This document shows positions 11,674 through 32,846 of a DNA stretch of 64,000 nt, one piece after another (position 1 is the first letter of the stretch; each line of letters begins with the position of its first letter). Under the pieces are notes generated by a model. That model worked only from the letters and a program-made list of their open reading frames with translations, ran no database searches and was not told the origin of the DNA. Position numbers and translations under genes: made by a program. The DNA comes from Gaiellaceae bacterium (GTDB lineage Bacteria > Actinomycetota > Thermoleophilia > Gaiellales > Gaiellaceae), in NCBI GenBank assembly GCA_035550275.1, contig DASZPQ010000023.1:13603-77602 (forward strand). The letters run 5' to 3'.

Positions 11674-11722
11674 ACGAGTCAGTGTCGCCCAATTCGGCCC
11701 GCCCAGGGCCGCCCGAAGCCGC

Positions 11723-11761: not shown

Positions 11762-11784
11762 CGGGCCGGGCGATCATCGGCGGC

Positions 11785-12884: not shown

Positions 12885-12927
12885 GGGCCGAATCACAGCG
12901 GCAGCCCCCGCCGGCGTGTCCCATGGC

Positions 12928-12966
12928 TTTCATCGACTTTTCATCGCCAGCTCCTGCCGGTGTTAT
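12928..12966 (+). promoter_or_regulatory. Second copy of TTTCAT-N5-TTTCAT plus TGTTAT block, upstream of P3
   Basis: GCTTTCATCGACTTTTCAT is identical over 19 nt to 11721..11739. TGTTAT at 12961 shows the same 16-nt spacing. Confidence 0.4.
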
Positions 12967-12988
12967 CCGATCCGGCGATCATCGAAGC

Positions 12989-14112: not shown

Positions 14113-14118
14113 TGCAAC

Positions 14119-14134
14119 TTTAGGTTCGTTTCAG
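14119..14134 (+). promoter_or_regulatory. Possible half-site pair TTTAGG-N4-TTTCAG upstream of the module B response regulator (candidate autoregulation site)
   Basis: Related to the TTTAGA/TTTCAT half-sites seen at 16158-16199. A CACAAT -10-like hexamer lies at 14145, just before ATG 14157. The spacing is 10 rather than 11 bp, so support is weak. Confidence 0.25.
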
Positions 14135-14156
14135 AGACGTCGCGCACAATCCTCTG

Positions 14157-14825
14157 ATGGCGATTCTCGTAGTCGATGACGACCGGAGGCTGCGGAACGC
14201 GCTTCGGCGTGTCCTTGTCTCGAACGGGTTCGAGGTCGAGATCGCGGGCGACGGCGACGAAGCTCTCGCGCGCTTGCGCGCAGGAGGATTTGACGCGATG
14301 GTCCTTGACGTGATGATGCCCGGGAGCGACGGAGTCGAGGTCTGCGAGCAGCTGCGCGCGGCGGGGAACCAGCTGCCGGTGCTGATGTTGACCGCGCGCG
14401 ATGCAGTTCGTGACCGGGTCGCGGGTCTCGAGGCCGGCGCCGACGACTACCTCGTGAAGCCCTTTGCGAACGAGGAGCTCGTGGCACGGGTACGCGCGCT
14501 GTTGCGCCGGTCCGGTGGCGGCACCGAGCTGATGGTCTTCGCCGATCTCGAGCTCGACCTCCTGACCCGCGATGCGCGCCGAGGTGAGCGGGAGGTCGAG
14601 CTTTCCCCGATTGAATTCGAGCTGCTCGAGTTCTTCCTGCGCCACCCTCGTCAGGTGCTCTCGCGTGGGCTGATCTACGAGCGGGTGTGGGGTCATGACG
14701 CGTCGCTGTCGTCGAACTCGCTCGACGTGTTTGTCGGCCATCTGCGGCGCAAGCTGGAAGCCGACGGTGAGCGGAGGTTGATCCACACCGTGCGCGGTGT
14801 CGGCTTCACGTTGAGGGAACGATGA
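14157..14825 (+). CDS. OmpR/PhoB-family response regulator (module B)
   Basis: REC domain ILVVDDD...MVLDVMMPGSDG...KP, plus a winged-helix C-terminus SPIEFELLEFFLRHPRQVLSR...TVRGVGFTL. Confidence 0.9.
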   Translation: MAILVVDDDRRLRNALRRVLVSNGFEVEIAGDGDEALARLRAGGFDAMVLDVMMPGSDGVEVCEQLRAAGNQLPVLMLTARDAVRDRVAGLEAGADDYLVKPFANEELVARVRALLRRSGGGTELMVFADLELDLLTRDARRGEREVELSPIEFELLEFFLRHPRQVLSRGLIYERVWGHDASLSSNSLDVFVGHLRRKLEADGERRLIHTVRGVGFTLRER

Positions 14826-16174
14826 GCTTTCGGCTCCGCTTGACGGTGCTCGCCTCGCTGGCGGTCGCAGTCGCGATCGTCGGCGCATCCTTTGCCGTCT
14901 ACTACACAGACCGGCATGAGCTCATCGCGCAGGTCGACAACGACCTCAGCTCGAGCCTCACCTTGCCGCGACTGAACGCGGTCTTCTCCGATCGGATCGG
15001 CGATGTCACGCGCGTGTCCGGTCGCGCGGAATCGGGACAGTCGAACGTGGGCAAGTTGCTGGCCGGGCCTGTGGCCGCGAACGGATTCCGGGTTGTGTTG
15101 CCGCGCTCCTCGACCGCGGTCCAGGTGCAGATCTTCAAGCCCAAGCCCGGTAGCTCGCCGAAGGCGATCTCGCAGTCGACGTTCAGCACCTCAACCATCG
15201 ACGGCGTGCCGACCCGGACGCTCTCGATCAGCTCGAAAGCCCAGGTCGTGACGATCTCGCGCTCGCTCCTCGACGTCGATCACAACCTGTCGCGCTTGAG
15301 ATGGCTGCTTATCTTCATCTCGCTCGGGGGCATCGGCACGGCGGCGATTCTCGGTGCGCTGGTTTCGGGTCGAGCCGTCGCGCCGCTTCGCCGCCTGACC
15401 GAGACGACGGAGCGAATCGTCGAGACAGGCGATCTCAGCCAGCGAACGGGGCGGCGGGGACGCGACGAGATCAGCCGCCTCTCCACCCGGCTCGACGAGC
15501 TGCTTGCCAGCCTCGAGGCGTCGCTGCGGACTCAGCGGCAGCTCGTCGCCGACGCGTCGCATGAGCTGCGCACCCCGATCGCGACGCTTCGGGCGAACAT
15601 CGGGCTGCTGGCTCACCCTGGAACGCTCGGTCAGAGCGAGCGCTCCGAGCTGATCGAGGACGTTCAGGAGGAGCTCGAGTCGATGACCGCGCTGGTCGGG
15701 GAGCTCGTCGAGCTTGCGCGCGGGGAGGAGCCCGACGTCGTGCCGACGGAATTCAGGCTCGACGAGGTCGTCCAAGGAGCGGTCGACCGCGCCGCGAGAC
15801 GCGCGCCCGATCTCTCGTTCCAAACCAGGCTCGAGCCCTCGCTGATCACCGGCGTGCCCGAACGGGTCGAACGGGCCGTCACAAACCTGCTCGACAACGC
15901 GAGGAAATGGAGCCCGCCCAGCGAGACCGTCGATGTGGCCGTCCATGACGGCGTCGTCGAGGTACGCGACCGAGGGCCGGGAATCGCAGCCGAGGACGCG
16001 CCGCTCGTCTTCAACCGCTTCTACCGGGCGAAGGCTGCCCGCGGCATGCCTGGGGCCGGCCTCGGGCTGTCGATCGTGAAGCAGATCGCCGATGCCCACG
16101 GCGGGAGCGTGAGCATCGACCGGGCCGCTGACGGAGGCGCGATCCTGCGACTCCAGCTTTCATCGACTCCTTAG
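14822..16174 (+). CDS. Sensor histidine kinase (module B; about 130-aa extracytoplasmic loop, HAMP, HisKA, HATPase)
   Basis: H-box DASHELRTPIATLRAN, NLLDNARKWSP, DRGPGI, GAGLGLSIVK. ATGA overlap with the RR gene. Confidence 0.9.
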   Translation: MSFRLRLTVLASLAVAVAIVGASFAVYYTDRHELIAQVDNDLSSSLTLPRLNAVFSDRIGDVTRVSGRAESGQSNVGKLLAGPVAANGFRVVLPRSSTAVQVQIFKPKPGSSPKAISQSTFSTSTIDGVPTRTLSISSKAQVVTISRSLLDVDHNLSRLRWLLIFISLGGIGTAAILGALVSGRAVAPLRRLTETTERIVETGDLSQRTGRRGRDEISRLSTRLDELLASLEASLRTQRQLVADASHELRTPIATLRANIGLLAHPGTLGQSERSELIEDVQEELESMTALVGELVELARGEEPDVVPTEFRLDEVVQGAVDRAARRAPDLSFQTRLEPSLITGVPERVERAVTNLLDNARKWSPPSETVDVAVHDGVVEVRDRGPGIAAEDAPLVFNRFYRAKAARGMPGAGLGLSIVKQIADAHGGSVSIDRAADGGAILRLQLSSTP

Positions 16175-16199
16175 AGGCACTTTAGAGCCGTTTTAGAGC
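16158..16199 (+). promoter_or_regulatory. Four 11-bp-phased half-sites (TTTCAT / CTTAGA / TTTAGA / TTTAGA), candidate OmpR-type RR binding array upstream of P5
   Basis: TTAGAG at 16171, 16182 and 16193. TTTAGAGCCGT is perfectly tandem-duplicated. The array begins inside the last codons of the HK gene. A homologous block lies at 20608..20648. Confidence 0.45.
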
Positions 16200-16213
16200 C
16201 GTCGGCTTTCCTG

Positions 16214-16774
16214 TTGAGAGTGGCCCAAACGCTTGTCCTCGCTGTCCTGGTGATCCTGCTCGCTGCTGCCGCTGCAGGCTGCGGCGGCTCGAAGCCGGCC
16301 CCGGTCGCGAGCCTCGGAACGACGGTGACGACCGGCGCGGGCTCCCCGACAGCGCCGGCGGCGAGCAGAGCTGCGCTCGCCGCATGCTTCGGCTCACACG
16401 GATTCCCGGCCTCGGTCGGTTCAGCGAGCACGTCGAGCCAGACCCTCTCCGTGTTTGGAGTCCAGATCAGCGGAAACGTCGATCCGGGCTCGGCGCAGTT
16501 TCAGGCGGCGCTGCAGGCCTGCCGCAAGTTCATACCCGGCGGCGGGCCGCCTGCGCTGACGCCGGCGCAGGAGGCCGAGGCGGCAAAGGCGATGCTGAGC
16601 TTCGCCGCCTGTATGCGCAAAGACGGCGTGCCGACCTTCCCGGACCCGAACGGCCAGGGACGGTTCCCCCTCGGCAGCATCGGCAAGCTCGATCCGAGCG
16701 CGCCGCTCTTCCAGAGCGCCTTCAAGAGCTGCCAGCCGCTCGAGCCGAAGGTCGGGCCGAGGATCGTGTTCTGA
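16214..16774 (+). CDS. CxR-PDP repeat lipoprotein P5 (first half-domain degenerate)
   Basis: Lipobox AAAGC. The first half is degenerate (LAACFGSHGFPASVG) and the second is canonical (FAACMRKDGVPTFPDPN...SAPLFQSAFKSC). Start is TTG 16214 or GTG 16220. Confidence 0.75.
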   Translation: MRVAQTLVLAVLVILLAAAAAGCGGSKPAPVASLGTTVTTGAGSPTAPAASRAALAACFGSHGFPASVGSASTSSQTLSVFGVQISGNVDPGSAQFQAALQACRKFIPGGGPPALTPAQEAEAAKAMLSFAACMRKDGVPTFPDPNGQGRFPLGSIGKLDPSAPLFQSAFKSCQPLEPKVGPRIVF

Positions 16775-17436
16775 TGCGGATGATCGCCTCCCACCACGTG
16801 CGCGGGGCCGCGCTGGCCGCCGGCGTGGCGGCGCTCGGGCTCGCTGCAGCGGGCTGCGGCGGCGGCGCGAAGACGCCCGCGGTCGCGAACCTCGGCACCA
16901 CGTCGACACCAAGCACCACCACCAGCCCGGCGGCGGGCGGCGCCGTCGGGGACACGGGCGCGCAGGCCAGTAGCAGTGGAGGCGGCGGCACGCTGAGGAT
17001 GGTGGGCGGGAGCGTCCAGGAGCTGACGAAGCTCTCCGCCTGCATGCGCAAGAACGGCGTGCCGAACTTCCCGGACCCGAACGCACAGGGCGAGATCTCG
17101 ATCACCGGCATCGACCCGGGATCGGCGAGCTTCCAGCAGGCTCAGCAGGCTTGCCGGAAGCTGCTGCCGAACGGCGGGACGCCAAGTCCGGCGCAGCAGG
17201 CGCAGGCCCGCGCCCAGGCGCTCGCCTTCTCGGCCTGCATGCGCAAGAACGGTGTGCCGAGCTTCCCCGATCCGCAATTCGGGAGCGGAGGCCGCATCTC
17301 GATCAAGATCGGCCGCGGCCAGGGCATCGACCCGAGCTTGCCGCAGTTCCAAGCCGCCCAGAAGGCGTGTCAGAAGGACATCCCAGGCAAGTTCGGTGCC
17401 CCGGTCGGGGGCGCGGCCAAGTCGAGCGACGGGTAG
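16774..17436 (+). CDS. CxR-PDP repeat lipoprotein P6
   Basis: ATG at 16774 overlaps the P5 stop by 1 nt (TGATG). Lipobox LAAAGC. Motifs LSACMRKNGVPNFPDPN and FSACMRKNGVPSFPDPQ. The upstream part of ORF 16384 is rejected. Confidence 0.8.
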   Translation: MRMIASHHVRGAALAAGVAALGLAAAGCGGGAKTPAVANLGTTSTPSTTTSPAAGGAVGDTGAQASSSGGGGTLRMVGGSVQELTKLSACMRKNGVPNFPDPNAQGEISITGIDPGSASFQQAQQACRKLLPNGGTPSPAQQAQARAQALAFSACMRKNGVPSFPDPQFGSGGRISIKIGRGQGIDPSLPQFQAAQKACQKDIPGKFGAPVGGAAKSSDG

Positions 17437-17453
17437 GAGGAGAGCGCCTGGAG

Positions 17454-18113
17454 CTAGGCGCCCGGCACGACGAGCCCGGATTCGTAGGCGACGACCACGG
17501 CTTGCGCGCGGTCGCGAAGGCCGAGCTTGCGCAGAACATGGCTGACGTGCGTCTTCACCGTCTCATTGCTGAGCACCAGGTGCTGCGCGATTTCCTGGTT
17601 CGAGAGCCCACTCGCGATCAGGCCGAGAATCTCGAGCTCGCGCCGGGTGAGCGCGTCGAGCGCTTCGGGGCGGGTGCGCTGCGGCGGGCGGAGGCGGGCG
17701 AACTCCGCGATCAGGCGGCGCGTGATCACCGGCGCCAGGAGCGCGTCTCCGGCGGCGACGACCCGCACCGCTTCGAAGAGCGACTCGGGGGGAGCGTCCT
17801 TGAGCAGAAACCCACTGGCGCCGGCCTGGAGCGCGTCGTAGACGTATTCGTCCAGGTCGAAGGTCGTCAGGACGAGGACCCGCGGCCCGGCCCCGCCTGA
17901 GGCGCAAATCTCACGGGTGGCGGCGATGCCGTCGAGCACCGGCATCCGGATATCCATCAGCACGATGTCGGGCCGGTGCTCCTGGCTTTGCTGCACGGCC
18001 TCTTCGCCGTCCGCTGCGGTTGCGACGACGGTGAAGTCGGCCTGGGTCTCGAGCAGGGCGGCGAAGCCCGCGCGCACGGCCTGCTGGTCGTCGGCGATCA
18101 GGGCGCGGATCAC
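17454..18113 (-). CDS. NarL/FixJ-family response regulator (REC + LuxR HTH)
   Basis: IRALIADDQ...IVLMDIRMPVLDG and LTRRELEILGLIASGLSNQEIAQHLVLSNETVKTHVSHVLRKLGL. Confidence 0.9.
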   Translation of the reverse strand: MIRALIADDQQAVRAGFAALLETQADFTVVATAADGEEAVQQSQEHRPDIVLMDIRMPVLDGIAATREICASGGAGPRVLVLTTFDLDEYVYDALQAGASGFLLKDAPPESLFEAVRVVAAGDALLAPVITRRLIAEFARLRPPQRTRPEALDALTRRELEILGLIASGLSNQEIAQHLVLSNETVKTHVSHVLRKLGLRDRAQAVVVAYESGLVVPGA

Positions 18114-19279
18114 GGCGTGGGCTCGCTGATCGGGAGCGTGATCTCCACCTCGAAGCCGCCCTCTTCGGCGGGCCCCGAGGCGAAGGTGCCGCTCGCGAGC
18201 GCCGCGCGCTCGCGCATTCCCATCAGGCCGTGCCCCTCGACCGGCTCGCCGCCCGGTGCGCCGGGGCCGTAGTCACGCACGCGCAGCTGGAGCATCTCGT
18301 CGCGATAGGAGACCTCGACATCGACGTTTGCGCCCGGAGCGTGGCGTCGTGCGTTCGTCAGCGCCTCCTGGATGATCCGGTAGGCGGCCAGATCGATGCT
18401 CAGAGGCAAGCGCACGACCTTCCCCTGCCGGATCAGGCGGACCGGCGTTCCGGAAGCTTCGGCCTTGGCGATCAAGTCGTCGAGATCGTCGAGCCCGGGC
18501 TGCGGCGCGCGGTCGGCTTCGCCGGCCGTGTCCTCCCGAAGGACTCCCAGTAGGCGGCGCGTCTCGGTGAGCGCCTCGCGAGCGGTCGAGGCGATTGCCT
18601 CGAGGCGGCCGCCGGCTTCCGAGGAGAGCTCCGGCGAGGTGCGCCGCGCGACCTCGCTCTCGATCGCGATCACGGACAGATGATGCGCCACGATGTCGTG
18701 GAGCTCGCGCGCGATGCGGGCTCGCTCTTCCATCACCGTCCGAGCGCGGGTGCTCTCGGCCATCGCCTCCTGGGTCGCGTCAAGCTCTGCGACCGCGAGC
18801 CCGCGTTTGCGGAGCGACTCGCCGACGATCAGGGCGCCGGCCAGGAAGAGCAGGGTCGTGTCGCTCGTGAAGCCGGCATTGGCGCCATCGAACCGCGGCG
18901 TGGCGAGGACCAGGAACGGAATCAGGAGCGGAGCGGCAAAGAGCAGGCCGCGCTGGATCACGAGCCGGACGAACAGGAAGAGCATCACGCAGAACGGCAT
19001 GATGCTGAGCGGTGTGCGGTGTGCCACGAGCACGACGGTGACCACGGTGGCTGCCAGCGCGGCGAGAGTCGGCCAGCGCCGAGCCAGTAGGAGCGCCGCG
19101 ACTGCAAGCACGTTCAAGGCGATCGTGATCTCGAGGACCTTCGCGGACACGTCCTTTGCGAGCAGCGCCTCGAGAACCGTCGCCAGCACGAGCACGCTCG
19201 TCAGGACGACTCGTCCGGGGCGGCCGGAAAGCAGACGCCGCAGCTCGACGAGCAGCGGCTCGATGTCTGACGTGTCCAC
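18110..19279 (-). CDS. Sensor histidine kinase, HisKA_3 (NarL-partner) type, multi-TM N-terminus
   Basis: RIARELHDIVAHHLSVI H-box, EALTNARRHAP, and GHGLMGMRERAA at the C-terminus. The stop overlaps the RR start. Confidence 0.85.
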   Translation of the reverse strand: MDTSDIEPLLVELRRLLSGRPGRVVLTSVLVLATVLEALLAKDVSAKVLEITIALNVLAVAALLLARRWPTLAALAATVVTVVLVAHRTPLSIMPFCVMLFLFVRLVIQRGLLFAAPLLIPFLVLATPRFDGANAGFTSDTTLLFLAGALIVGESLRKRGLAVAELDATQEAMAESTRARTVMEERARIARELHDIVAHHLSVIAIESEVARRTSPELSSEAGGRLEAIASTAREALTETRRLLGVLREDTAGEADRAPQPGLDDLDDLIAKAEASGTPVRLIRQGKVVRLPLSIDLAAYRIIQEALTNARRHAPGANVDVEVSYRDEMLQLRVRDYGPGAPGGEPVEGHGLMGMRERAALASGTFASGPAEEGGFEVEITLPISEPTP

Positions 19280-19445: not shown

Positions 19446-19991
19446 ATGCATCGCCGCCGCTCATTCCTCGTTGCCTCGGCCGTTCCCGCCGCTGTGTTGG
19501 CACTGCTTTCCGCCGGATGTGGTGGCAATTCGCCGGCGGCGGGCGTCAGCACCACGTCGTCGACGTCCTCCACCACGACGAACGGCCCGCTCGCCTTCGC
19601 GCGCTGCATGCGCGCCCACGGGCTGTCGAAATGGCCCGACCCGACGAGTAGCGGGGTCTTCGACAAGGCGACGCTGCGCCAAACCGGGTATAGCGAGTCC
19701 CAGGTCAGGGCGGTCGAGGACGGCGCCTGCGCTCAGCTGCTTGGCGGCGCGTCGCCTCAACGGCCGACGATCACCGCCGCCGACCGGGCCGACTACCTCG
19801 CGGCAGCCGCCTGCATGCGAACGCACGGGTTCGCAGGCTTTCCCGATCCGACGTTCCTGAACGGCGGCGTCCAGACCAACGTCCCGGCGACCATCGACCA
19901 GGACTCCTCCCGGTTCAAAGCTGCGGCGACGACCTGCACGAAGCTGATACCGGCGGGTCTTCCCTACAGCAGACCGAGCGGTTCGGGCTAA
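19446..19991 (+). CDS. CxR-PDP repeat lipoprotein P7
   Basis: Lipobox LLSAGC. Motifs FARCMRAHGLSKWPDPT (shares WPDPxSSGVFDK with P4) and AAACMRTHGFAGFPDPT. Confidence 0.8.
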   Translation: MHRRRSFLVASAVPAAVLALLSAGCGGNSPAAGVSTTSSTSSTTTNGPLAFARCMRAHGLSKWPDPTSSGVFDKATLRQTGYSESQVRAVEDGACAQLLGGASPQRPTITAADRADYLAAAACMRTHGFAGFPDPTFLNGGVQTNVPATIDQDSSRFKAAATTCTKLIPAGLPYSRPSGSG

Positions 19992-20000
19992 TCGCCCGGT

Positions 20001-20588
20001 GTGATGCGAAGCCGCGTACTCATCCTCGGTTCCGTCGTCCCGCTGGCCGTGTTGTCGCTGCTCGCGGCCGGTTGCGGCGGCGGTGGCGGCTCCGCTCCGG
20101 GCATTGCGAGCGTGGCCTCTTCCACCACCGCGACGACCACGCCGGCGCAGAACGGGCTGCTTGCCTTCTCCGCCTGCATGCGCTCCAACGGGATGCCGAA
20201 CTTCCCCGATCCTCAGCACTTCGTCGGAGGAAACGTGAAGCTGACGCTGCACCAGCTCGGGACCGGCAATCCGAAGTTCCAGGCCGCCATCAGCGCCTGC
20301 AATCACCTGCTCCCCTCGAACGGCGGCGGAAGCTCGGACACGGCGCAGGAGCAGCGCACGAAGATCGCGGACGGGCTCTCGTTTGCCAGATGCATGCGCA
20401 GCCATGGCGTTGCCCGTTTCCCCGATCCGAGCGCGCAGGGCGACTTGACGGTCGAGATGGTTCAGGCACAGGGGATCGACGTCCATTCCCCGGCAGTCCT
20501 GCATGCGATCCAGACCTGCCTGCCGGCGTCGCACGGTGCGCTCACGCCGGCGAAGGTCAGAGAGGCGCTCAGCAATGCAGGCGGCTGA
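20001..20588 (+). CDS. CxR-PDP repeat lipoprotein P8
   Basis: Lipobox LLAAGC. Motifs FSACMRSNGMPNFPDPQ and FARCMRSHGVARFPDPS. Lies 9 nt after the P7 stop. Confidence 0.8.
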   Translation: MMRSRVLILGSVVPLAVLSLLAAGCGGGGGSAPGIASVASSTTATTTPAQNGLLAFSACMRSNGMPNFPDPQHFVGGNVKLTLHQLGTGNPKFQAAISACNHLLPSNGGGSSDTAQEQRTKIADGLSFARCMRSHGVARFPDPSAQGDLTVEMVQAQGIDVHSPAVLHAIQTCLPASHGALTPAKVREALSNAGG

Positions 20589-20806: not shown

Positions 20807-22366
20807 GTGTCTGAGACCGAGGACACCCTTGTCTCGGCGCCGCAGCGGCTGACGCCGCCGGCTCCGCGCCGCCTGCAGTTGTCGAGGCGGTCGCTGATCG
20901 CGCTCGGCGCGGGCGTCGCCGTGGTCGTGGCGGTCGTGATCGCATTCGCAAGCGGCGCGTTCGGTGGCGGCAGCGCCGCACCGGGGTCGGCAGACAACCC
21001 GTATCCGACGTCGCTCCAGACGGTGACGCGGCAGTCGTTGACCCAGCAGACGCAGGTGAGCGCCACGCTCGGCTACGCAGACCCAGCGACGATCGTCGCG
21101 CCTGCCGGGACGACACCCCAAGATCTCGCGCAGGCGAAGCAGGCTGCGACGACCGCCCAGACCCAGCTCCAGACCGCACAGGCGGCATTGACGGCGGACA
21201 AGGCGACACTGGATCAGGCGAACGCGAGCCTGTCCGCGGACCGGGCGAAGCTGGCCGTCGACTGCGGCGGCGACAACGCCGGCGAAAGCGCTGCGAGCCC
21301 TTCCGCGTCCGGCTCCGGGAACGGCTCCGGCTCCGGTGCGTGCGCGACGGACTCGCAGTCCGTCTCGGCCGACCGCCAGAGCGTCACGCAGGCAGCGGCG
21401 AAAGTCGCGAGCGACCAGCAGGCCACCACGTCGGCGACGACGGCGCTCGCGACCGCCGCAGCGAGCCTCACACAGGCGGAGTCGTCGGGCACGGTCTACG
21501 GGCAGAGCTCGACCTACACCGAGCTCCCGGCGGTCGGCGCGATCGTGAAGCGGGGCCAGACCCTCTACGAGATCAGCGGCGCACCGGTTGTCGTGCTCTA
21601 CGGATCGGTGGCGCCCTGGAGGGCGTTCATGTCCGGCATGTCGCCGGGGCAGGACGTCGCGGAGCTGAACTCGAACTTGCGCGCGCTCGGCTATGGCTCA
21701 GGTCTGAGCGGCGACGCGTTCACCTCTGAGACCGTGTCGGCGATCGACGCCTTCCAGTCCGCACGCGGGCTCAGCCAGACCGGGCAGCTACTGCTTGGCT
21801 CGGTGGTGTTCGAGCCGGGGCCGGTGCGGGTCACCACCGTGACGCCGACGCTCGGGGCGACCGTCCAGGCCGGCCCGGTGCTCGGCATCACCTCGCTCGT
21901 CCGCCAGGTGACGATCGCGCTCGATGCGGCCCAGCAATCCGACCTCAAGGTCGGCGACCCGGTCACGATCACGCTGCCCGACAACAGCACGACGCCGGGG
22001 AAGGTTTCCTACGTCGGCACCGTCGCCACCGTCCCATCGAGCTCCGACCAGGGTGGCGGTGGCTCGAGCTCGCCGACGATCGAGGTCGACGTCACGCCAA
22101 CCGACCCGGCGGCGACCGGCCATCTCGACCAGGCGCCGGTCAACGTCTCGATCACAACCGGCAGCGTCCAGAACGCACTGACCGTGCCGGTCAACGCGCT
22201 GCTTGCGCTCGCCTCCGGCGGCTACGCCGTCGAGGTGGCGGGAGCGGGCGGCGTCCACCACTTGGTCGGGGTCCAGCTCGGCCTCTTCGACGACGCGAAC
22301 GGATTGGTTCAGGTCACCGGCACCAGCCTGACCGTCGGCACGCGCGTGGTGGTGCCGAGCACATGA
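20807..22366 (+). CDS. Periplasmic-adaptor (HlyD/MFP-like) protein with inserted peptidoglycan-binding domain (module B)
   Basis: N-terminal TM segment [20 protein letters not shown]-rich coiled coil. PG_binding_1-like segment [49 protein letters not shown]-terminal beta-barrel segments typical of MFP adaptors. ATGA overlap with the ABC ATPase gene. Confidence 0.85.
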
Positions 22367-23124
22367 CCGCCGTCTCCGCCACCGACTCGACCCTGACCAT
22401 GCCGGCGCCGGCGAGCGATCGCGGCCCGGAGACGGTGCTCGAGCTCGATGACGTGACCAAGCTCTACGGCAGCGAGCCGCCGGTGATCGCGCTCGACGGC
22501 GTCAGCTTCAGCGTCCACCGCGGCGAGCTGCTCGCGATCGTCGGCCCGTCCGGCTCGGGCAAGTCGACGCTCCTGCATCTGATGGGCACGCTCGACCGGC
22601 CAAGCTCCGGAACCGTTCGAATCACCGGCCTCGACGTCGCCGGCCTCACCGACCGGGAGCTGGCCGCGCTGCGTGCGACGCGGATCGGGTTCGTCTTCCA
22701 GCAGTTCTTCCTCGCCGAGCACGCAACGGCATTGGAGAACGTCGCGGACGGGCTGCTCTATACGGGCGTTCCGGTCGCGGAGCGGCGCGAGCAGGCAGCC
22801 GGCGTGCTTGCCTCGGTCGGGCTTGGCGACCGCCTTAAAGCGCGGCCGACCCAGCTCTCCGGCGGCGAGCGGCAGCGGGTTGCGATCGCTCGTGCCCTCG
22901 TCGGGCGGAAGGCGATCGTGCTCGCCGACGAGCCGACAGGAAACCTCGACAGCACCACTGGCGCCGCGATCCTCGCCCTCCTGCACGAGCTGCACGCGGG
23001 CGGCGCGACGATTGTCGTGATCACCCACGATCGCGACCTCGCAGCCGGCCTGCCCCGTCAGGTCGAGATGCTCGACGGACGGATCGTCACCGACACCGCC
23101 AATCAGAAAGGCGGGCTCGGATGA
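22363..23124 (+). CDS. ABC transporter ATP-binding protein, MacB/LolD type (module B)
   Basis: Walker [10 protein letters not shown], signature [15 protein letters not shown], Walker [14 protein letters not shown]-loop ITHD. Confidence 0.95.
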
Positions 23125-24998
23125 GCATTCCGCGGATCCATCACAGCTCGACACGGCGTGTTCTCGCCGCGCTGGCTCTCGTTACCGGGATCGGTGTCAG
23201 CGGCGCGATCATCGGCGGGCCCGCGCCCGCCTCGGCCGACACCTGCCCGGCCTCGAACCCGCCGAACGAATTGCTCCTGAGCAGCGGCTCCCCCCAGACG
23301 GCGAGGCTGCATCAGCCCTTCGGCGAGACCTTGCAGGTGACGCTCGCGAACACGAATGGCTGCTCGGTCACGACGAACCAGACCGGCGTCGCAGTCACCT
23401 TCACGGCACCGTCGAGCGGCGCGACCGGAACCTTCTCGGCGAGCGGCTCCAACTCGGTCACCGTCGGCACGAACTCCTCGGGCCAGGCGAGCGCGGCCGG
23501 CTTCACCGCGAACAGCGTCGCCGGCAGCTACACGGTCAGCGCCAGCTCCAGTTACGGCAGCATCTACTTCTCGCTGGCGAACACCGCGAACGGCGTCGCC
23601 GCGGCGATCACGCCGGGCTCGCCGGCGAGCCCGTAGGCACCGGTCGGGAGTCAGTACCTGCAGCCGTTGCAGGCGACGGTGGTCGATGCCAACGGCAGCC
23701 CGATCGACGGTGCGAGCGTCACGTTCACGCTCGGCGCGAGCGGCGGCGGAGGCGGAGGCGGTGCCGGAGGCTCCGGTGCGAGCACGCCGGCCGCGAGCTT
23801 CGCCGGTGGCGCCAGCCAGGCGACCGAGCTGACGAACGCCGCCGGCACCGCCACCTCGCCGCTGTTCACCGCCAATACGACTGCCGGGATGTTCACCGCA
23901 ACCGCCGCCACGGCCGGTGTCACGGAGCCGGCGAGCTTCGCGCTCGACAACCTGGCCGGGGCTCCGCTCAGGATCGCCGCGCTTGCGCCGGCGAAGCAGT
24001 CCGCAACGACCGGTGCCCGCTACGGCAAGCCGCTGCAGGTGAAGCTGCTCGACGGGAGCGGCAAGCCTGTCCAAGGGGCGACGGTGACCTTCACGCTCGG
24101 CTCCGCCGCGAGCGGCGGTGGCGGCGGCGCGGGTGGGTCTGGATCCGCCACTGCGGGCGCGACCTTCGCCGACGGCTCGAGCCAGGCAACCGCGACGACC
24201 GACGCCTCCGGAGTCGCAACGTCGCCGCGCTTCAGCGCGAACACGACGGCGGGGCCGTTCACCGCGACCGCGACCACGACCGGCACGGACAATGTGGCGA
24301 GCTTCTCGCTCGACAACCTGGCCGGCCACTCGCCGACGATCGCGACCGACGGGAAGTCGAAGCAGTCGGCGACGGTCGGCGCCCGGTACGCCAAGCCGCT
24401 GCAGGTGAAGGTGCGCGACGCACACGGCAAGCCGCTTCAAGGAGCGAGCGTCACGTTCACGCTCGGCGCCGCGGGCAGTGGCGGCGCGGGCGCAGCAAGT
24501 GCGGCCGGTGCGAGCTTCGTCGGCGGCGGCAGCCAGGCAACCGAGGTCACGAACGCAGCCGGAATCGCCAGCTCGCCGCGCTTCGCTGCCAACACGACGG
24601 CAGGAGCCTTCACCGCGACCGCGACCACGGCGGGGACGACCAGGGCAGCAAGCTTCCCGCTTCGCAATCTGCCTGCGCAGCCGGCGACGATCACGGCCGG
24701 AGTGGCGGCGAGCGAGTCGGCCCCTGTCGGAACGCGCTTTCCGGTCCGGCTCGCCGTCACCGTCAGTGACAAGAACGGGAACGCGGTTACGGGTGTCACG
24801 GTGAGCTTCTCCGCGCCCGCCCATGGCGCCAGCGGTCACTTCGGCAAGAAGCGCACCGTGAAAGTGAAGACCGACGCCAAAGGCGTTGCCGTCACCCCGG
24901 TCTTCGTCGCCAACCGGAAGCCGGGCGGATACATCGTGCGGGCGAGAGCCGCCGGCCACTCGGCCGCGTTCGCCCTCGTCAACCAGCCAGCGGCCTAG
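23121..24998 (+). pseudogene. Secreted Ig-like (invasin/Big_1-like) five-repeat surface protein interrupted by one in-frame TAG (23634..23636)
   Basis: ORFs 23121..23636 and 23667..24998 are in the same frame and are separated only by a TAG. The repeat alignment continues straight through the stop (GSPASP*APVGSQY versus GVAASESAPVGTRF). The N-terminus resembles a signal or Tat-like leader (TRRVLAALALV...ASA). The start overlaps the ATPase stop (ATGA), and the stop TAG abuts the permease ATG. Confidence 0.7.
23637..24734 (+). repeat. Three tandem 366-nt (122-aa) coding repeats inside the Ig-like gene, flanked by two more divergent copies
   Basis: The PLQ(A/V)(T/K)V anchor recurs at 23667, 24033 and 24399 (period 366), then at 24744. 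Each unit contains a poly-Gly/Ala/Ser insertion (for example GASGGGGGGGAGGSGAS). Confidence 0.7.
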
Positions 24999-26204
24999 AT
25001 GAGCACGACCGGGTCGCTGACACCCGTGAAGCTGCGGCCGGGCGACCTGGCCCGCATCGCCAGCGTCGGGCTCCGCACGCGCCGCATGCGCGCCGCGCTC
25101 TCGGCACTCGGGATCGCGATCGGCGTCGCCGCGATCGTTGCCGTGCTCGGTCTCTCGGCGTCCTCGCGGTCAGGCTTGCTGGCCGAGATCGACCGGCTGG
25201 GCACGAACCTGCTCACCGTCACCACCGGCCAGACGCTCTTCGGAGCGACGGCCGAGCTGCCGCTTGCCTCGCCAGGGATGATCGCCCGCATCGGGCCGGT
25301 CACACAGGTCGCGGATACCGGCTCGACCAGCGTGAACGTCTACCGCAGCCCGCTGATCCCGTCTGTGAACACGAATGCCCTTCAGGTGCAGGCGGCGACG
25401 CTGAACCTGCTTCCCGCGGTCGGCTCGACCGTCGCCCGGGGCAGCTATCTCAACACTGCCACCGCGACCGAGCCTGTGTGCGTGCTCGGCGCTCAGGCCG
25501 CGCAGCTACTCGGTATCGACCGCGTCTACCCGGGCGAGCGCGTTTGGCTCGGCGGCATGTGGTTCTACGTCACCGGCATCCTCACCTCCGCCACGCTTGC
25601 TCCCGAGATCGACAGCAGCGTGCTCGTCGGCTTCCCCGCCGCCGACAAGTACCTCGGCCTCGACGGTCATCCGACGACGATCTACGTTCGCGCCGTCACC
25701 ACCCAGACCGCCGCGGTGCAGGCCGTCCTCGCTTCGACCGCCAACCCGGAATCTCCGAATGAGGTGAACGTGAGCCAGCCGTCGGCTGCGCTTGTCGCGC
25801 GCGCGGACGCGCAGGGGGCGCTGAACGGCCTCTTCCTGGGGCTCGGCGCCGTCTCGCTGCTCGTCGGCGCGGTCGGCGTTGCCAACATCATGATCATCTC
25901 CGTCCTCGAGCGCCGCAGTGAAATCGGCCTTCGACGGGCGTTGGGCGCGACCAAAGGGAACATCCGCGCCCAGTTCCTGAGCGAGGCGATCCTGCTGGCG
26001 CTGCTCGGCGGCGCGGCCGGCGTCGGCTTCGGAGTCCTCGCAACCGCCGTCTATGCGCACACGAAGCACTGGGCGGTCGTGATCCCGACGCTCGCCTGGG
26101 CGGGCGGCCTCGGCGCCGCCTTCGCAATCGGCGCCGTTGCCGGCCTCCTGCCTGCGATCCGCGCAGCGCGTCTCTCACCGACAGACGCCCTTCGCACGGT
26201 CTGA
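24999..26204 (+). CDS. ABC transporter permease, MacB/FtsX type (module B)
   Basis: N-terminal TM, then a periplasmic MacB_PCD-like domain of about 230 aa, then FtsX helices VGVANIMIISVLERRSEIGLRRALGATKGNIRAQFLSEA. Confidence 0.9.
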   Translation: MSTTGSLTPVKLRPGDLARIASVGLRTRRMRAALSALGIAIGVAAIVAVLGLSASSRSGLLAEIDRLGTNLLTVTTGQTLFGATAELPLASPGMIARIGPVTQVADTGSTSVNVYRSPLIPSVNTNALQVQAATLNLLPAVGSTVARGSYLNTATATEPVCVLGAQAAQLLGIDRVYPGERVWLGGMWFYVTGILTSATLAPEIDSSVLVGFPAADKYLGLDGHPTTIYVRAVTTQTAAVQAVLASTANPESPNEVNVSQPSAALVARADAQGALNGLFLGLGAVSLLVGAVGVANIMIISVLERRSEIGLRRALGATKGNIRAQFLSEAILLALLGGAAGVGFGVLATAVYAHTKHWAVVIPTLAWAGGLGAAFAIGAVAGLLPAIRAARLSPTDALRTV

Positions 26205-28033: not shown

Positions 28034-29251
28034 TTACCCCGAGTTGCTGAGTGAGGCCAGAGCCGATTGCTCCCTCGGCGGCTTTGCGCCGGGCTGCGGC
28101 GCCGGCCGTCCCAGCAGCCAGCCCTGGCCGAAGCCGACGCCGAGCTTGATCAGCGCACCGAGCTCGGCGTCGCTCTCGATCCCCTCCGCGACGATCGTCG
28201 TGTCGCTCTTCTCGGCGAAGGAGATCAGGCCGGCGGCGAGCGCCTGCTTTGACCGGTCGAGGTCGATGCCATTGATCAGGGTCATATCGAGCTTGATCAG
28301 ATCAGGATCCAGATTCAGAATGTGGCGGAGGCTGGCAAATCCCGAGCCTGCGTCGTCAACCGCGAGCCGGACTCCAAGGCACCGTAGCTTGCTCACCGCG
28401 TCGGCCAGGCGATCGTAGTCGGCGATCCGCGCGTGCTCGGTGATCTCGACGACAAGCTGTCCGCCGTTCACGCGCGAGACGAGGTCGTGGAAGGCGGTCG
28501 CAGCGAGTGTCGTCGGAGAGACGTTGACGGCGAGGTAGACGTCGCTCGGAAGCTGACGCATCGCGGCGGCGGCCTTTTGAACTGCGACAAGCTCGAGATC
28601 GTCGCCAAGGCCGACTTCTGCCGCGTCCGCGAACCAGACGTCAGGTGTCTGCGTCGGCGGCCCCGCAAACCGCGCGAGCGCCTCGACCCCGATCAGCTTC
28701 CGCCCGCGCAGAGCGACGATCGGCTGAAAGACCATCGCGAAAGCCTTCTCGTCCTGGAGCGCGAGCCGGATGCGCTGCTCTTGCAGCGACTGCTTCTTCC
28801 TGGCCTGGGATTGGATCGCGAGCTGCGAGCTGAGCTCATCGATGATGTCGCTCGTCACCTCGGGCGAGAGGCTGCCCTGGCCTTCGGGCGCGCGCTTGAC
28901 CGCCCGGATGATCTCGTCGATCGGGCAGCCCTTGATCAGGTAGCCGACGACCCCGACCTCGAGCATCGCGAGCACCGTCGACCGGTCGCCGTTTCCCGAG
29001 AGCGCGATCATCTTCGAGCCGGGAGAGCACTTCTTGATTCCCTTTGCCGCCTCCAGGCCGCCGCCGGCGGGCATATCCACGTCGAGCAGAACGACATCGG
29101 GCCGCTGTGCGTCGGCGATGGCGATCGCCTCGGTCGCATCCGAGGCTTCCCCGACGAGCTCGAACGCGGGCTCGCTGCGAATCGAGTCCGCGAGCACGTC
29201 CCGGACGATCGGCTCGTCGTCTGCGATCAACACTCGCAATCGCGCCGTCAC
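28034..29251 (-). CDS. Response-regulator receiver + EAL domain protein (putative c-di-GMP phosphodiesterase)
   Basis: REC domain VLIADDEP...VLLDVDMPAGGG. EAL-domain motifs QPIVAL...GVEALAR, EITEHA, LAVDDAGSGF, IKLD, VAEGIE, GQGW. Confidence 0.9.
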   Translation of the reverse strand: MTARLRVLIADDEPIVRDVLADSIRSEPAFELVGEASDATEAIAIADAQRPDVVLLDVDMPAGGGLEAAKGIKKCSPGSKMIALSGNGDRSTVLAMLEVGVVGYLIKGCPIDEIIRAVKRAPEGQGSLSPEVTSDIIDELSSQLAIQSQARKKQSLQEQRIRLALQDEKAFAMVFQPIVALRGRKLIGVEALARFAGPPTQTPDVWFADAAEVGLGDDLELVAVQKAAAAMRQLPSDVYLAVNVSPTTLAATAFHDLVSRVNGGQLVVEITEHARIADYDRLADAVSKLRCLGVRLAVDDAGSGFASLRHILNLDPDLIKLDMTLINGIDLDRSKQALAAGLISFAEKSDTTIVAEGIESDAELGALIKLGVGFGQGWLLGRPAPQPGAKPPREQSALASLSNSG

Positions 29252-29304
29252 CGAACGTCTCCCGCTGGAATCGTCATCTCGAGCAAGGCGTACATCTTTT
29301 GCGC

Positions 29305-29925
29305 TCAGGCGATGAGTTCCTGTCGAAGGGCGGTCGCAACGGCTTGTGTTCGCGTATTCGCATCGAGCTGCCGCATTGCCTTCTGGACGTGAGTCCGGAC
29401 CGTCTCGGTCGCGATGAAGAGCTGGCGGCCGATCTCCTCGTAGGTATTGCCGTTCGCGAGCAGCCTCAGCACATCGCGCTGGCGCTCGGACAGCTCGGTC
29501 AACTTCCCGGTCGCATTGCCGCTGGCGAGCACACCGGCGAGAGCCGGATCGACATACGTGCCGCCGCCTGCCACGATCTCGATCGCCCGAACGAGGTCGG
29601 CGAGCGGCGCCTCCTTGAGCACGACCCCGCGTGCGCCCGCATCGACTGCCTCGACCAGCAATGCCTGCTCGGCAAAGCCCGTGTAGAGGATCACCGCGGT
29701 CGCCGGCGACGAGCGAACCGCGTCGCGAGCGACGTCGATGCCCGAGAGCTGGGGCATCCGCAGGTCGACGATCGCAACGTCGGGATGCATCGACTCGATC
29801 TTCGCGAGCGCGTCTTTCCCGTCGCGGGCGCGGGCGACGATCTCGATTCCCTCCTCGGTCAGGTAATCGCTGACGGCGTTCAAGACCGCGGGATGGTCAT
29901 CAGCTACCAGACACCGGACTTCCAT
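29305..29925 (-). CDS. NarL/FixJ-family response regulator
   Basis: REC domain LVADDHPAV...AIVDLRMPQLSG, plus LuxR HTH LSERQRDVLRLLANGNTYEEIGRQLFIATETVRTHVQKAMRQL. Confidence 0.9.
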   Translation of the reverse strand: MEVRCLVADDHPAVLNAVSDYLTEEGIEIVARARDGKDALAKIESMHPDVAIVDLRMPQLSGIDVARDAVRSSPATAVILYTGFAEQALLVEAVDAGARGVVLKEAPLADLVRAIEIVAGGGTYVDPALAGVLASGNATGKLTELSERQRDVLRLLANGNTYEEIGRQLFIATETVRTHVQKAMRQLDANTRTQAVATALRQELIA

Positions 29926-30011
29926 CAGGCCATCAACTCCTGTGCAGGGGAATTCGCCTTGAAAAGCATACTCGTGTCAACAGGAAATTGGACTTTCGCA
30001 ACGCGGCATCC

Positions 30012-31091
30012 CTAGACGGCCGGCCGCTTCAGCTCGGATGTGCCCGACTGGGCCTCGGCTGCGCTCGGCAGATAGACCTTGAACGTCGTTCCCCGGCCCG
30101 GTTCGCTCTCGACCCAGATGGCGCCGCCGCTTTGGCGCACGATGCCGAAGGACGTCGCGAGGCCGAGCCCGGCGCTGTCGTCGCTCGTCGTGAAGAACGG
30201 ATCGAAGAGCCGTGCGCGCGTTAGGTCGTCCATGCCCTGCCCCGAGTCTGCGACCTCGAGCAGCACGTAGGCGCCGGGGCCGAGGCCGGGATGAGCTCGC
30301 GCAGACAGCTTGTCGAGGGCGACGTTTTCGGTGCGGATCGTGAGTGTCCCCCCGGCCGGCATCGCGCCGCCGGCGCTCAGCGCGAGGTCTGAGATCACCC
30401 GGCTCAGTTGGCCGCGGTCGACGATGATCGGGTCGAGAGCAGGCTCGAGCTCGGATCTGACCTGGATGCCTCCCCCGAGCGAGCTTTCGGAGGCAGCGAG
30501 CGATTCAGCGACCAGCGCGTTCAGATCGGACAGCTCAGGGCGGAGGATCTGCTGGCGGCTGAACGCAAGGAGCTCGTGGGTGAGCTCAGCTGCCTGACCT
30601 GCCGCCTCGTTGATCCTGACGACCCGCTCGCGGAGCTCGTCGTCGTCCATCTTCTTGAGCAGGAGATCGCTGAGCCCCCGAATCACGAGCAGGACGTTGT
30701 TGAAATCGTGCGCGACGCCCGCCGCGAGGCTGCCGACGGCGTCCAGCTCCTGCGTCTCGCGCAGCCGGCTCTCTCGCCCCTGCTCGGAGACGTCGCGGAT
30801 GATCGCGATCTCGGCCTGCTCCGACTCGATCTCGCCGCTGGACAGCGAGAGCTCCACCGGGAAGGAGCTGCCGTCTTTGCGACGTCCAAAAGGGGCGACG
30901 GATGCGACCTGACCACCTGCCCACGGTTGGCCTGGAACGAGCGCGTCCGCCTGGAGGCCCGCAAGCTCGTCGGCCTGGTAGCCGAAGACCCTGTGCGCCT
31001 CGCGATTTGCATGCGCGACCTTGCCGGCCGAGTCGACGACGATCACAGCGTCAGGAGCATGTTCGAAGATCGTGCGGAATACCGAAGTCAT
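30012..31091 (-). CDS. Cytoplasmic PAS-domain sensor histidine kinase
   Basis: PAS domain IFEHAPDAVIVVDSAGKVAHANREAHRVFGY...RRKDGSSFPVE. H-box AAGVAHDFNNVLLVI. HATPase motifs DSGQGMD and GLGLATSFGIV. No TM segment. Confidence 0.9.
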   Translation of the reverse strand: MTSVFRTIFEHAPDAVIVVDSAGKVAHANREAHRVFGYQADELAGLQADALVPGQPWAGGQVASVAPFGRRKDGSSFPVELSLSSGEIESEQAEIAIIRDVSEQGRESRLRETQELDAVGSLAAGVAHDFNNVLLVIRGLSDLLLKKMDDDELRERVVRINEAAGQAAELTHELLAFSRQQILRPELSDLNALVAESLAASESSLGGGIQVRSELEPALDPIIVDRGQLSRVISDLALSAGGAMPAGGTLTIRTENVALDKLSARAHPGLGPGAYVLLEVADSGQGMDDLTRARLFDPFFTTSDDSAGLGLATSFGIVRQSGGAIWVESEPGRGTTFKVYLPSAAEAQSGTSELKRPAV

Positions 31092-31397
31092 CCACGTGCT
31101 CGCTCACGGATTCTTTGCCTGATCACGATCACTGCTTCGAACGAGCATGTTGTCTTAATGAAGACACGGATTGACCTTTCTGTCTCGAGCCTGTCGATCC
31201 CTGCTTCTCTCCAACCCAGCAACGGCGGAGCTCGCCGTAAACGCTACGTCGGCATCGCTCCCCACTTGCTTTAGGGCCTTGCCTCCCGGGTTCGCGTACC
31301 CGGCTCACCTCTTCCGGATGCCAGAGCGCTCGAAAACGGGGATCGCCGTGTCTTTCGGCGCTGCCGATCGATTGGTCAAGCCAACAAGGGGAGGAAC

Positions 31398-31643
31398 ATG
31401 CTGACCACGATCACCACCAAGATTGCTCTCGTCACCGTTTCTGGAGTCTTGTTCGGATACTCGAGTGGCGCGATCGCGATTCCCTCGACGGACGCGGTCG
31501 GCGTGCCGAGTGCAGGGACGTTCGGCGGCCCGGTAGGCCACGCCGGAACGATCCAGCGCGATCTCGAGTCGGCCGGCACGCTTCGCCGCATCCCCTGCGC
31601 AGGCGGAGCGCTGCCCGGCACCACCTGTTACGCGGCCCAGTAG
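31398..31643 (+). CDS. Small secreted protein (81 aa) with C-terminal C-x9-C loop
   Basis: Strong SD AAGGGGAGG 5 nt before the ATG. N-terminal hydrophobic leader MLTTITTKIALVTVSGVLFGYSSGA, a Gly/Ala/Pro-rich body, and the ending RRIPCAGGALPGTTCYAAQ. No recognisable family. Confidence 0.5.
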   Translation: MLTTITTKIALVTVSGVLFGYSSGAIAIPSTDAVGVPSAGTFGGPVGHAGTIQRDLESAGTLRRIPCAGGALPGTTCYAAQ

Positions 31644-31651
31644 ATCACCCG

Positions 31652-31696
31652 CACCTCGCGAGCAGCGTTCCCCCTCCCTGGCGCTGCTCGCAGGTG
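31652..31696 (+). terminator. Strong GC hairpin (10 + 5 bp stem, 14-nt loop) immediately after the small ORF; terminator or attenuator
   Basis: CACCT-c-GCGAGCAGCG ... CGCTGCTCGC-AGGTG. No U-tract follows, which is common in high-GC actinobacteria. Confidence 0.4.
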
Positions 31697-31901
31697 CGAA
31701 CCACAGCACTCTGACCCGCTCTCTCGTGCCGGTTCCGGCGCGAGTTCGCGCTGGTCCGCACCTCGTCGAAAGGGCGTAGCTCCTTCACCGCTTCGGGTGA
31801 GCGGCGTCGGTCGAATACAGGGATCGCACCGGAATCTTCGTGAGCCGAGGAGATGAGAAGCCCGGCTTCTTGGGGCTCGCATCCCAACTCACGGAGATCC
31901 C

Positions 31902-32846
31902 ATGAACGCCCACAGCACTCGAGCACCTCGCAGGATCGCCGTCGCAACACTCGCGGCGGCCTGCATTGCAGCAGCACTGACGACCGCCGCAGAGGCTGCG
32001 GCCAAGCCCGCACCGCTCACGCGGAATGTCGCCGCCCACTCGACCCGCGCCGCGCAGAAGTCCGGCAGCGCGACCGGCGTCGCGATCGCCATCGTCGACA
32101 CCGGCGTCACGGCGATTCCGGAGCTGAGCGGGCGCCTAGTCGCCGGCGTCGATCTGACGAACAACGGCAGCACGAGCGACGGCAACGGCCACGGCACCGC
32201 CATGGCGAGCATCGCCGCCGGCCAGCCGGCTCCTGGCAACAACGCGGGCGGCGTCTGTCAGACCTGCACCATCCTCCCGGTCCGCGCCGTGGGCAGCGCC
32301 GGGCTCGGCACAACGCAACTCGCCGCGGCGGGCGTCACGTGGGCCGCTGCTCACGGCGCGCGCGTGATCAACCTCTCCCTGACCACGTCCGCCGAAGACC
32401 CGGCGCTCACTGCAGCGATCAACAACGCAGTGAACGCCGGCATCGTTGTCGTCGTCGCCGCGGGAAACTCAGGCTCAGGTGACCCGAGCGCGCAGGGCTA
32501 TCCGGGAGCAGGCACGGCCGAAGCGATCACGGTTGCCTCCGCCAACGGGCTCACCAGCCTCTACCCGTGGTCGAACAGCGGCTCCTGGGTCCAGCTCGCC
32601 GCACCGGGATCGCTCACGGCATCGACCACCACCGGCAAGCCCTTCGCCGCCATTGGCACCTCCGGCTCGGCTGCGTATGTCAGCGGCCTGGTCGGCCAGA
32701 TGCTCTCCTGCAATCCGGGCCTGACCCCGGCTCAGGTGCAGTCGATCCTTCTTTCCACGGGCACACCGTTCGCCCCGCTCGGCTCGAACGGACATGTCGT
32801 GAACGTTGCCGCGGCGGCCGCAGCCGCGGCGTGCCCGGCCGCCTAG
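31902..32846 (+). CDS. S8-family (subtilisin-like) serine peptidase, secreted
   Basis: Catalytic triad contexts VAIAIVDTGV (Asp), GNGHGTAMASIAAG (His) and GTSGSAAYVSGLVG (Ser). Leader contains RAPRRIAVATLAAACIAA. No I9 propeptide is apparent. Confidence 0.9.
   Translation: MNAHSTRAPRRIAVATLAAACIAAALTTAAEAAAKPAPLTRNVAAHSTRAAQKSGSATGVAIAIVDTGVTAIPELSGRLVAGVDLTNNGSTSDGNGHGTAMASIAAGQPAPGNNAGGVCQTCTILPVRAVGSAGLGTTQLAAAGVTWAAAHGARVINLSLTTSAEDPALTAAINNAVNAGIVVVVAAGNSGSGDPSAQGYPGAGTAEAITVASANGLTSLYPWSNSGSWVQLAAPGSLTASTTTGKPFAAIGTSGSAAYVSGLVGQMLSCNPGLTPAQVQSILLSTGTPFAPLGSNGHVVNVAAAAAAAACPAA

Follow-up and report, generated by a model that had tools for sequence, protein, structure and literature searches.

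The stretch of DNA considered here, referred to as the window in the following, comprises 64,000 nucleotides (nt) of the metagenome-assembled genome (MAG) of a Gaiellaceae bacterium (Actinomycetota, Thermoleophilia; GenBank assembly GCA_035550275.1, contig DASZPQ010000023.1, positions 13,603 to 77,602 of the forward strand). It contains a transporter cassette of four genes, the third of which (23121-24998, forward strand) codes for a predicted secreted protein with five immunoglobulin-like (Ig-like) repeats, R1 to R5. This gene, the Ig gene in the following, stands between the genes for an ATP-binding cassette (ABC) ATPase and a MacB-type permease, and its frame is interrupted by a single TAG codon. 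An earlier examination of the window, which was made from its letters and its open reading frames (ORFs) and which we call the sequence-only reading, had drawn attention to this interruption.

Translated as a whole, the frame 23121-24998 has 626 codons; its sole internal stop is codon 172, the TAG at 23634-23636, and its terminal stop is the TAG at 24996-24998. In the ORF list, the same frame appears as two entries, 23121-23636 (171 amino acids (aa), starting at ATG) and 23667-24998 (443 aa, starting at TTG), and GenBank likewise lists two hypothetical proteins, VG652_02175 (HWB21676.1, 171 aa) and VG652_02180 (HWB21677.1, 439 aa), with the start of the latter placed at GTG 23679 (23679-24998). 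Over the part after the TAG, the window and HWB21677.1 (VG652_02180) of the Gaiellaceae bacterium MAG are 100% identical. At the upstream junction, the ATPase ORF ends at 23124, and the ATG at 23121 and the TGA at 23122-23124 form an ATGA overlap with the start of the Ig gene; at the downstream junction, the permease ATG at 24999 follows the TAG of the Ig gene with zero gap, and no Shine-Dalgarno-like sequence is visible ahead of it. These coordinates agree with the sequence-only reading, which had described one gene with a sole in-frame TAG, start-coupled to the ATPase and abutting the permease ATG. An antisense ORF of 618 aa (23103-24959) was dismissed as the usual mirror of a coding frame in high-GC DNA. 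The features of the locus are listed below, with L001 denoting the closest orthologous contig.

17454..18113 (-): LuxR-type response regulator, divergent from the cassette; 92% identity, over 219 aa, to an L001 gene with Response_reg and GerE matches in Pfam
18110..19279 (-): histidine kinase of the HisKA_3 type, paired with the regulator; its L001 counterpart, at 80% identity, has HisKA_3 and HATPase_c
19446..19991 (+): small secreted Cys-containing protein 1; lipobox-like LLSAGC, no Pfam match, paralogue of 20001-20588
20001..20588 (+): small secreted Cys-containing protein 2; LLAAGC, no Pfam family
20807..22366 (+): adaptor-like protein, 519 aa; PG_binding_1 (PF01471, E=1.7e-8), weak match to a CzcB-type adaptor (E=0.005)
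22363..23124 (+): ABC ATPase of the MacB/LolD/FtsE type, 253 aa; PF00005 (E=1.4e-33), GenBank HWB21675.1
23121..23237 (+): predicted signal peptide of the Ig protein, residues 1-39; read from the translation, position conserved in the alignment, putative cleavage site
23238..23633 (+): Ig-like repeat R1 with the invariant Cys42 and Cys81; together with the signal peptide, it makes up the entire truncated ORF (VG652_02175)
23634..23636 (+): in-frame TAG in the linker between R1 and R2; stands where a Ser codon, TCG, is conserved (C-to-A at 23635)
23637..24002 (+): Ig-like repeat R2, with a Gly-rich loop; repeat alignment and Pfam
24003..24368 (+): Ig-like repeat R3; repeat alignment and domain profiling
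24369..24719 (+): Ig-like repeat R4; repeat alignment and domain profiling
24720..24998 (+): Ig-like repeat R5, whose conserved C-terminus is AAFALVNQP; true stop, TAG, at 24996-24998; best Big_1 stretch (residues 371-442 of the part after the internal TAG), C-termini flush in the alignment
24999..26204 (+): MacB-type permease, 401 aa; MacB_PCD (PF12704, E=1.4e-17) and FtsX (PF02687, E=1.8e-20), 94% identical to the L001 orthologue, GenBank HWB21678.1

When the joined sequence, read across the TAG, was used as a query, about 850 homologues were found at E<=1e-5, many of them 612-623 aa in length, with 100% query coverage and 66-80% identity, and judged from these matches the frame is conserved far beyond chance. 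The column of the alignment that holds the TAG is occupied by Ser in all 14 close full-length homologues (612-623 aa, 66-80% identical) and, in a set of 43 full-length homologues, by Ser in 37, Thr in three, Lys in two and Ala in one, with a stop in none. The window's own repeats tell the same: the residue aligned with the TAG is Ser in R2, R3 and R4, encoded by TCC, TCG and TCG, respectively. Since the orthologous codon is TCG in seven loci (L001, L002, L003, L008, L013, L094 and L095; it is TCC in L004), the TAG lies one C-to-A transversion, at 23635, from the ancestral state. The sequence-only reading had aligned the TAG with a Ser codon TCG one nucleotide away, and both the window's repeats and the orthologous codons bear this out. 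The surrounding linker between R1 and R2 is the least conserved stretch of the protein in the homologue alignments; the three closest relatives have AGC CAG TCG GCG ACC GTC where the window has AGC CCG TAG GCA CCG GTC.

Both flanks are present in 69 loci; in 66 of these, the Ig gene runs as one open frame, and none of the other loci examined has a nonsense interruption like that of the window. The three exceptions, L007, L008 and L009, are from uncultured MAGs of Actinomycetes, Actinomycetota and Thermoleophilia (isolates MFD05513, MFD04463 and MFD05502). Their Ig gene switches frame part-way, as does the permease gene in L007, and they therefore carry indel-type lesions, which probably do not mark pseudogenes but reflect sequencing errors of the indel kind in repetitive, GC-rich DNA. 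The Ig protein of the window is 76% identical to its L001 orthologue before the TAG and 77% after it, and the flanking genes are full length relative to L001. By all these comparisons, the frame 23121-24998 is one ancestral gene; an ancestral pair of separate genes, which the sequence-only reading had considered as well, is contradicted by the orthologous loci, in which one intact gene is found.

The position of this gene is conserved as well. In L001, where the Ig protein is intact (621 aa) and 77% identical to that of the window, the genes are arranged in the order response regulator, histidine kinase, small protein, PG_binding_1 protein (520 aa), ATPase (253 aa), Ig protein and MacB permease (401 aa). 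This order is shared by eight GTDB MAGs (Actinomycetota, Thermoleophilia, Gaiellaceae) and recurs at the loci of more distant homologues (487-870 aa) and in those JGI contigs that are closest. In all, 95 related loci of soil Actinomycetota were compared, with adaptor, ATPase, Ig protein and MacB permease as their common order. Over the whole synteny set, which comprises 93 loci of soil Actinomycetota, 80 of them from metagenomes, the ATPase gene lies directly upstream of the Ig gene in 85 of the 87 loci with room for it, the permease gene lies directly downstream in 66 of 68, and a homologue of the adaptor is found upstream in all 43 loci with enough sequence. The junctions are similarly constrained: ATPase stop and Ig start overlap by 4 nt in 46 of 61 loci, Ig stop and permease start do so in 37 of 61, and the remaining junctions mostly fall within -1 to +6 nt. 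The two-component pair adjoins the cassette in L001, L002, L010, L011 and L013, and one to three copies of the small secreted Cys-containing protein precede the adaptor gene in related loci.

By its best NCBIfam matches, the ATPase resembles MacB (2.1e-66), LolD and FtsE, all of these matches being below the equivalog cut-offs. The permease has the composition of the MacB type, a MacB_PCD core followed by a C-terminal FtsX module with four transmembrane helices (4-TM), and it matches MacB far better than FtsX in NCBIfam. We accordingly read the Ig gene as the conserved third gene of a predicted cassette that consists of a peptidoglycan-binding adaptor, an ATPase, the Ig protein and a MacB_PCD/FtsX permease, in which the adaptor role of the 519-aa PG_binding_1 protein is putative. 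As far as can be told from the loci collected, its hosts are soil Actinomycetota of the Gaiellaceae/Thermoleophilia kind. As the order of ATPase, Ig protein and permease is held across about 90 loci, the Ig gene is no local insertion. The suggestion that it had been wedged into a transporter operon as a peculiarity of this genome thus gives way to that of a conserved family architecture; the related genomes, whose inspection the sequence-only reading had proposed, have the gene at this very place between ATPase and permease across the family. We found no description of this cassette architecture in the literature.

The window contains a second module of this type, module C (46889-49928), which comprises an adaptor (PG_binding_1, 374 aa), an ATPase and a permease. 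Its ATPase and permease genes overlap directly and it has no Ig gene, so that its gene content is as previously described. The ATPase is 70% and the permease 61% identical to the counterparts in the cassette with the Ig gene (module B), and its adaptor is shorter than that of module B, by roughly 145-235 residues at the N-terminus. The small secreted Cys-containing proteins, too, recur in the window, at 11974-14067 (four copies), 16277-17400 (two copies, inside a 350-aa ORF at 16384-17436), 19446-20588 (the two genes listed above) and 46407-46844. Their signal peptides are lipobox-like (e.g. LLSAGCGG), a motif resembling CMRxHG..FPDP is duplicated within them, and no Pfam or NCBIfam family was found for them. 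Copies adjoin two-component systems and lie upstream of both MacB-type modules.

The Ig protein itself is predicted to be secreted and to consist only of a signal peptide and five tandem Ig-like beta-sandwich domains of the Big_1 type. The signal peptide, as read from the sequence, has an RR-containing n-region, a hydrophobic core of 20 residues and an ASA|D site; a C-terminal anchor or sorting motif was not seen in the same way. On the part after the TAG, Big_1 (PF02369) matches in three stretches with E=1.7e-18 and 66.9 bits, against a cut-off of 34.9. R1 alone has no Pfam match, yet it can be aligned with the other repeats. All five repeats align, with R2-R4 being 58-62% identical to one another at the amino acid level and 68-73% at the nucleotide level, and R1 and R5 being 34-39% identical to the other repeats. 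These results uphold the earlier description of a secreted protein with five Ig-like repeats. The two ends are the constant parts of the family: in an alignment of 14 full-length homologues, R1 has two invariant cysteines, C42 and C81, and the R5 tail AAFALVNQP is conserved, and domain profiling of 120 homologues yields the arrangement R1, two to six middle repeats and R5, in which the ends are constant and the R3-type middle repeat expands.

To the same effect, an AlphaFold2 model of the intact L001 orthologue (P0009), built from an alignment of 43 sequences, has five predicted all-beta domains (mean predicted local distance difference test score, pLDDT, of 82), with the signal peptide and the Gly-rich loops disordered. 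A Foldseek comparison of this model with the PDB returned only generic tandem Ig or macroglobulin (MG) arrays, such as those of complement C3/C5 and titin, at E of about 1e-15, and a profile search of the PDB sequences with the Ig-protein family gave no match. The label 'invasin/Big_1-like', which had been given to the protein in the sequence-only reading, is thus appropriate on the level of the Big_1 domain, as the protein shares with invasin and intimin a Big_1 profile above the gathering score and, in the model of its orthologue, tandem beta-sandwich domains. No other part of invasin or intimin was detected: both the outer-membrane beta-barrel anchor and the lectin-like, receptor-binding adhesive domain at the C-terminal tip are absent from the Pfam matches, and the Ig protein is therefore not an invasin or intimin. 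It further differs from these proteins in its occurrence in Actinomycetota and in the disordered Gly-rich loops of its middle repeats. Many family members are labelled 'protocatechuate 3,4-dioxygenase beta subunit' in JGI; the name appears to have been transferred spuriously, on the strength of a weak match between beta-sandwiches (Dioxygenase_C, E=0.021 here).

As assembled, the Ig gene is disrupted. It has the marks of an ordinary nonsense pseudogene, namely intact orthologues of 612-623 aa, a one-nucleotide path from the orthologous sense codon TCG to TAG and no compensating signal, and in this respect there is nothing distinctive about it. We moderately favour the view that the A at 23635 is real and represents an evolutionarily recent nonsense mutation in the assembled population. 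A single C-to-A change would have turned the Ser codon TCG of the linker into TAG, an ordinary stop in the genes of the window: of its 44 open frames with high GC content at third codon positions (GC3), 19 end in TAG, 20 in TGA and five in TAA, and the Ig gene's own end, exactly where all homologues end, is a TAG, too. Translation would then end after 171 codons and yield a mature fragment of ~132 residues with domain 1 only. Domains 2-5 would be left without an export signal, and any product re-initiated at TTG 23667 or GTG 23679 would be cytoplasmic and useless. Since the permease ATG has no visible ribosome-binding site and appears to rely on coupling to the stop of the Ig gene, the output of permease would probably be lowered as well. 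As identity to the orthologue is the same on both sides of the TAG, to within one percentage point, and the flanking genes have their full length, decay has gone no further and the lesion would be recent.

Several points weigh against this view. The base is known from a MAG consensus only, with which a consensus or base-call error is compatible. A near-identical strain was not found in the collections searched; a scan of metagenome contigs for the exact pattern gave 0 matches, and in a collection of about 15 billion proteins, each of the two annotated fragments is the only member of its 90% cluster. The TAG is also one of a few closely spaced differences from the three closest relatives, which could equally reflect a local assembly problem or normal divergence of the linker, and the lack of a second lesion would be expected of an artefact, too. 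The most serious competitor is an assembly or base-calling artefact at 23635, with the organism itself having TCG and an intact gene of 625 aa. A lone single-base lesion in an otherwise perfectly conserved frame, unique with respect to 66 intact loci and 43 full-length proteins, speaks for it, as do the five differences in 11 nt that separate this site from the closest relatives and the fact that the source is a third-party-assembled MAG. On the other hand, the assembly looks clean, as in the 9 kb alignable with L001 each neighbouring gene corresponds to its orthologue over the full length; a local cluster of differences is unremarkable in the linker, which varies more than any other part of the protein; and in a short-read consensus, if that is what underlies this MAG, substitution errors are rarer than real nonsense polymorphisms. 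Collapse of the repeats during assembly was considered and judged unlikely, since exact DNA repeats within the Ig gene, which might mislead an assembler, do not exceed a few tens of nt and the repeat units are only 71-74% identical in DNA. All in all, we regard an artefact as a serious but less probable explanation of the TAG. The sequence-only reading had counted a nonsense mutation and a sequencing error among its options, and it is these two that stay in contention, whereas those in which the interrupted gene is meant to be as it is are disfavoured.

One of the latter has the TAG translated, through programmed read-through, a suppressor tRNA or recoding of the pyrrolysine type, so that a regulated mix of 17-kDa and 60-kDa products would arise. 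That the frame is open and conserved beyond the TAG is the only observation in its favour, and we consider it extremely improbable: a stop is found at this column in none of the 43 full-length homologues, TAG is a frequent genuine terminator in the window, including the end of the Ig gene itself, the predicted folding of the 100 nt at and downstream of the TAG is no better than that of shuffled sequences (z=-1.0), and the only tRNA within the window is a tRNA-Thr, so there is no suppressor tRNA in it. The base after the internal TAG is a G, and a stop codon followed by G is not known to be a leaky context in bacteria. Hardly more credible, and in our view very unlikely, is a functional split into a secreted single-domain R1 protein and a separate four-domain protein that starts from TTG 23667 or GTG 23679. 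GenBank does annotate two proteins (171 aa and 439 aa), and start-like codons occur 31 and 43 nt past the TAG. The downstream product, however, would begin with MQATVVDANG and have no signal peptide, although domains 2-5 appear to be part of one exported chain in all homologues; the TTG, at which reinitiation had been proposed, is preceded by a GGGAG at a poor spacing of 16 nt, the GTG corresponds to an ordinary Val codon that the orthologues conserve, and no related locus has the split form. Nor does the proposal of an on/off state of a surface protein find a basis, as there is no simple-sequence repeat, homopolymer or invertible segment at the site AGC CCG TAG GCA; tandem repeats are limited to short runs of ACCGCG and to runs of the GGC type in the Gly loops (23740-23771). 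A fusion of Ig protein and permease via read-through of the terminal TAG was also rejected, as the two are in frame in the window but their frame relation varies across loci. Recoding, phase variation and fusion are thus unsupported by the checks of stop usage, orthologues, fold, tRNAs, repeats and frame. A GC3-based scan for other interrupted genes, intended as a control of assembly quality, was uninformative, as its flags were dominated by antisense high-GC3 frames.

Elsewhere in the window, signalling genes are unusually dense around the transporters (9524-19279 and 28034-34870), with three pairs of histidine kinase and response regulator, a response regulator with an EAL domain (28034-29251), a hybrid kinase with three receiver stretches (32843-34870) and a 917-aa AAA/LuxR regulator (6774-9527). 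A protein of 1,498 aa (37289-41785, forward strand) has five Lamin Tail Domain (PF00932) repeats (E=1e-60) and is mirrored by an antisense ORF of 1,503 aa (37172-41683), a typical high-GC artefact. Two long high-GC3 ORFs are without a Pfam match, 51375-53711 (forward strand, 778 aa) and 12320-13561 (forward strand, 413 aa), the latter of which overlaps the cluster of small-protein paralogues.

With regard to its transporter part, the cassette is most readily compared with the Gram-positive MacAB-like (type VII ABC) pumps with an adaptor, such as YknWXYZ of Bacillus subtilis and Spr0693-0695 of Streptococcus pneumoniae (PMC5985334). Type VII ABC transporters act by mechanotransmission, such that work is done outside the membrane together with an adaptor, and what the adaptor does in MacB-type systems of bacteria that have no outer membrane is still an open question (PMC5985334). 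With these pumps, the cassette shares a separate ATPase of the MacB/LolD type, a 4-TM permease of MacB_PCD and FtsX and an upstream gene for a putative adaptor, and in neither case is an outer-membrane duct expected. YknW of B. subtilis even provides a precedent for an extra accessory protein. By contrast, the extra component of the cassette is a secreted multi-Ig protein, encoded between ATPase and permease, and not a membrane protein; moreover, its putative adaptor carries PG_binding_1, and the cassette is known from its genes alone. A looser analogy may be drawn to FtsEX and its partners PcsB, RipC, EnvC or CwlO, in which an ABC module of the MacB superfamily is likewise paired with a secreted partner that is possibly acted on mechanically; the Ig protein differs from these partners in having no hydrolase or coiled-coil domain, and the permease is nearer to MacB than to FtsX.

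There is one further proposal, which we make tentatively and consider rather less than an even bet, namely that the Ig protein is an unrecognised fourth component of a Gram-positive MacAB-like machine, either docked on the pump and reaching through the wall or serving as its dedicated cargo. The constant R1 and R5 ends around a middle of two to six Ig repeats, as well as a gene that would be co-translated with those of ATPase and permease, are the features on which we base it. When the length of the Ig protein was compared with that of the adaptor, no co-variation was found (Spearman rho 0.21, p=0.21, n=38, with noisy start calls), and because of this negative result, the roles of subunit, cargo and co-regulated bystander are all possible; the Ig protein may be an extracytoplasmic partner of the pump. 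Should it indeed be a fourth component, the broken copy in this genome would constitute a natural knock-out.

The TAG itself carries little weight, as it is either a routine pseudogene or a consensus lesion, and VG652_02175 and VG652_02180 should be annotated as one disrupted gene. Of more interest is a secreted multi-Ig protein whose gene is tightly coupled between those of ATPase and permease in about 90 loci of uncultured soil Actinomycetota. With its variable length, this Ig partner is a candidate for how such pumps reach across a thick wall, or for what they export.

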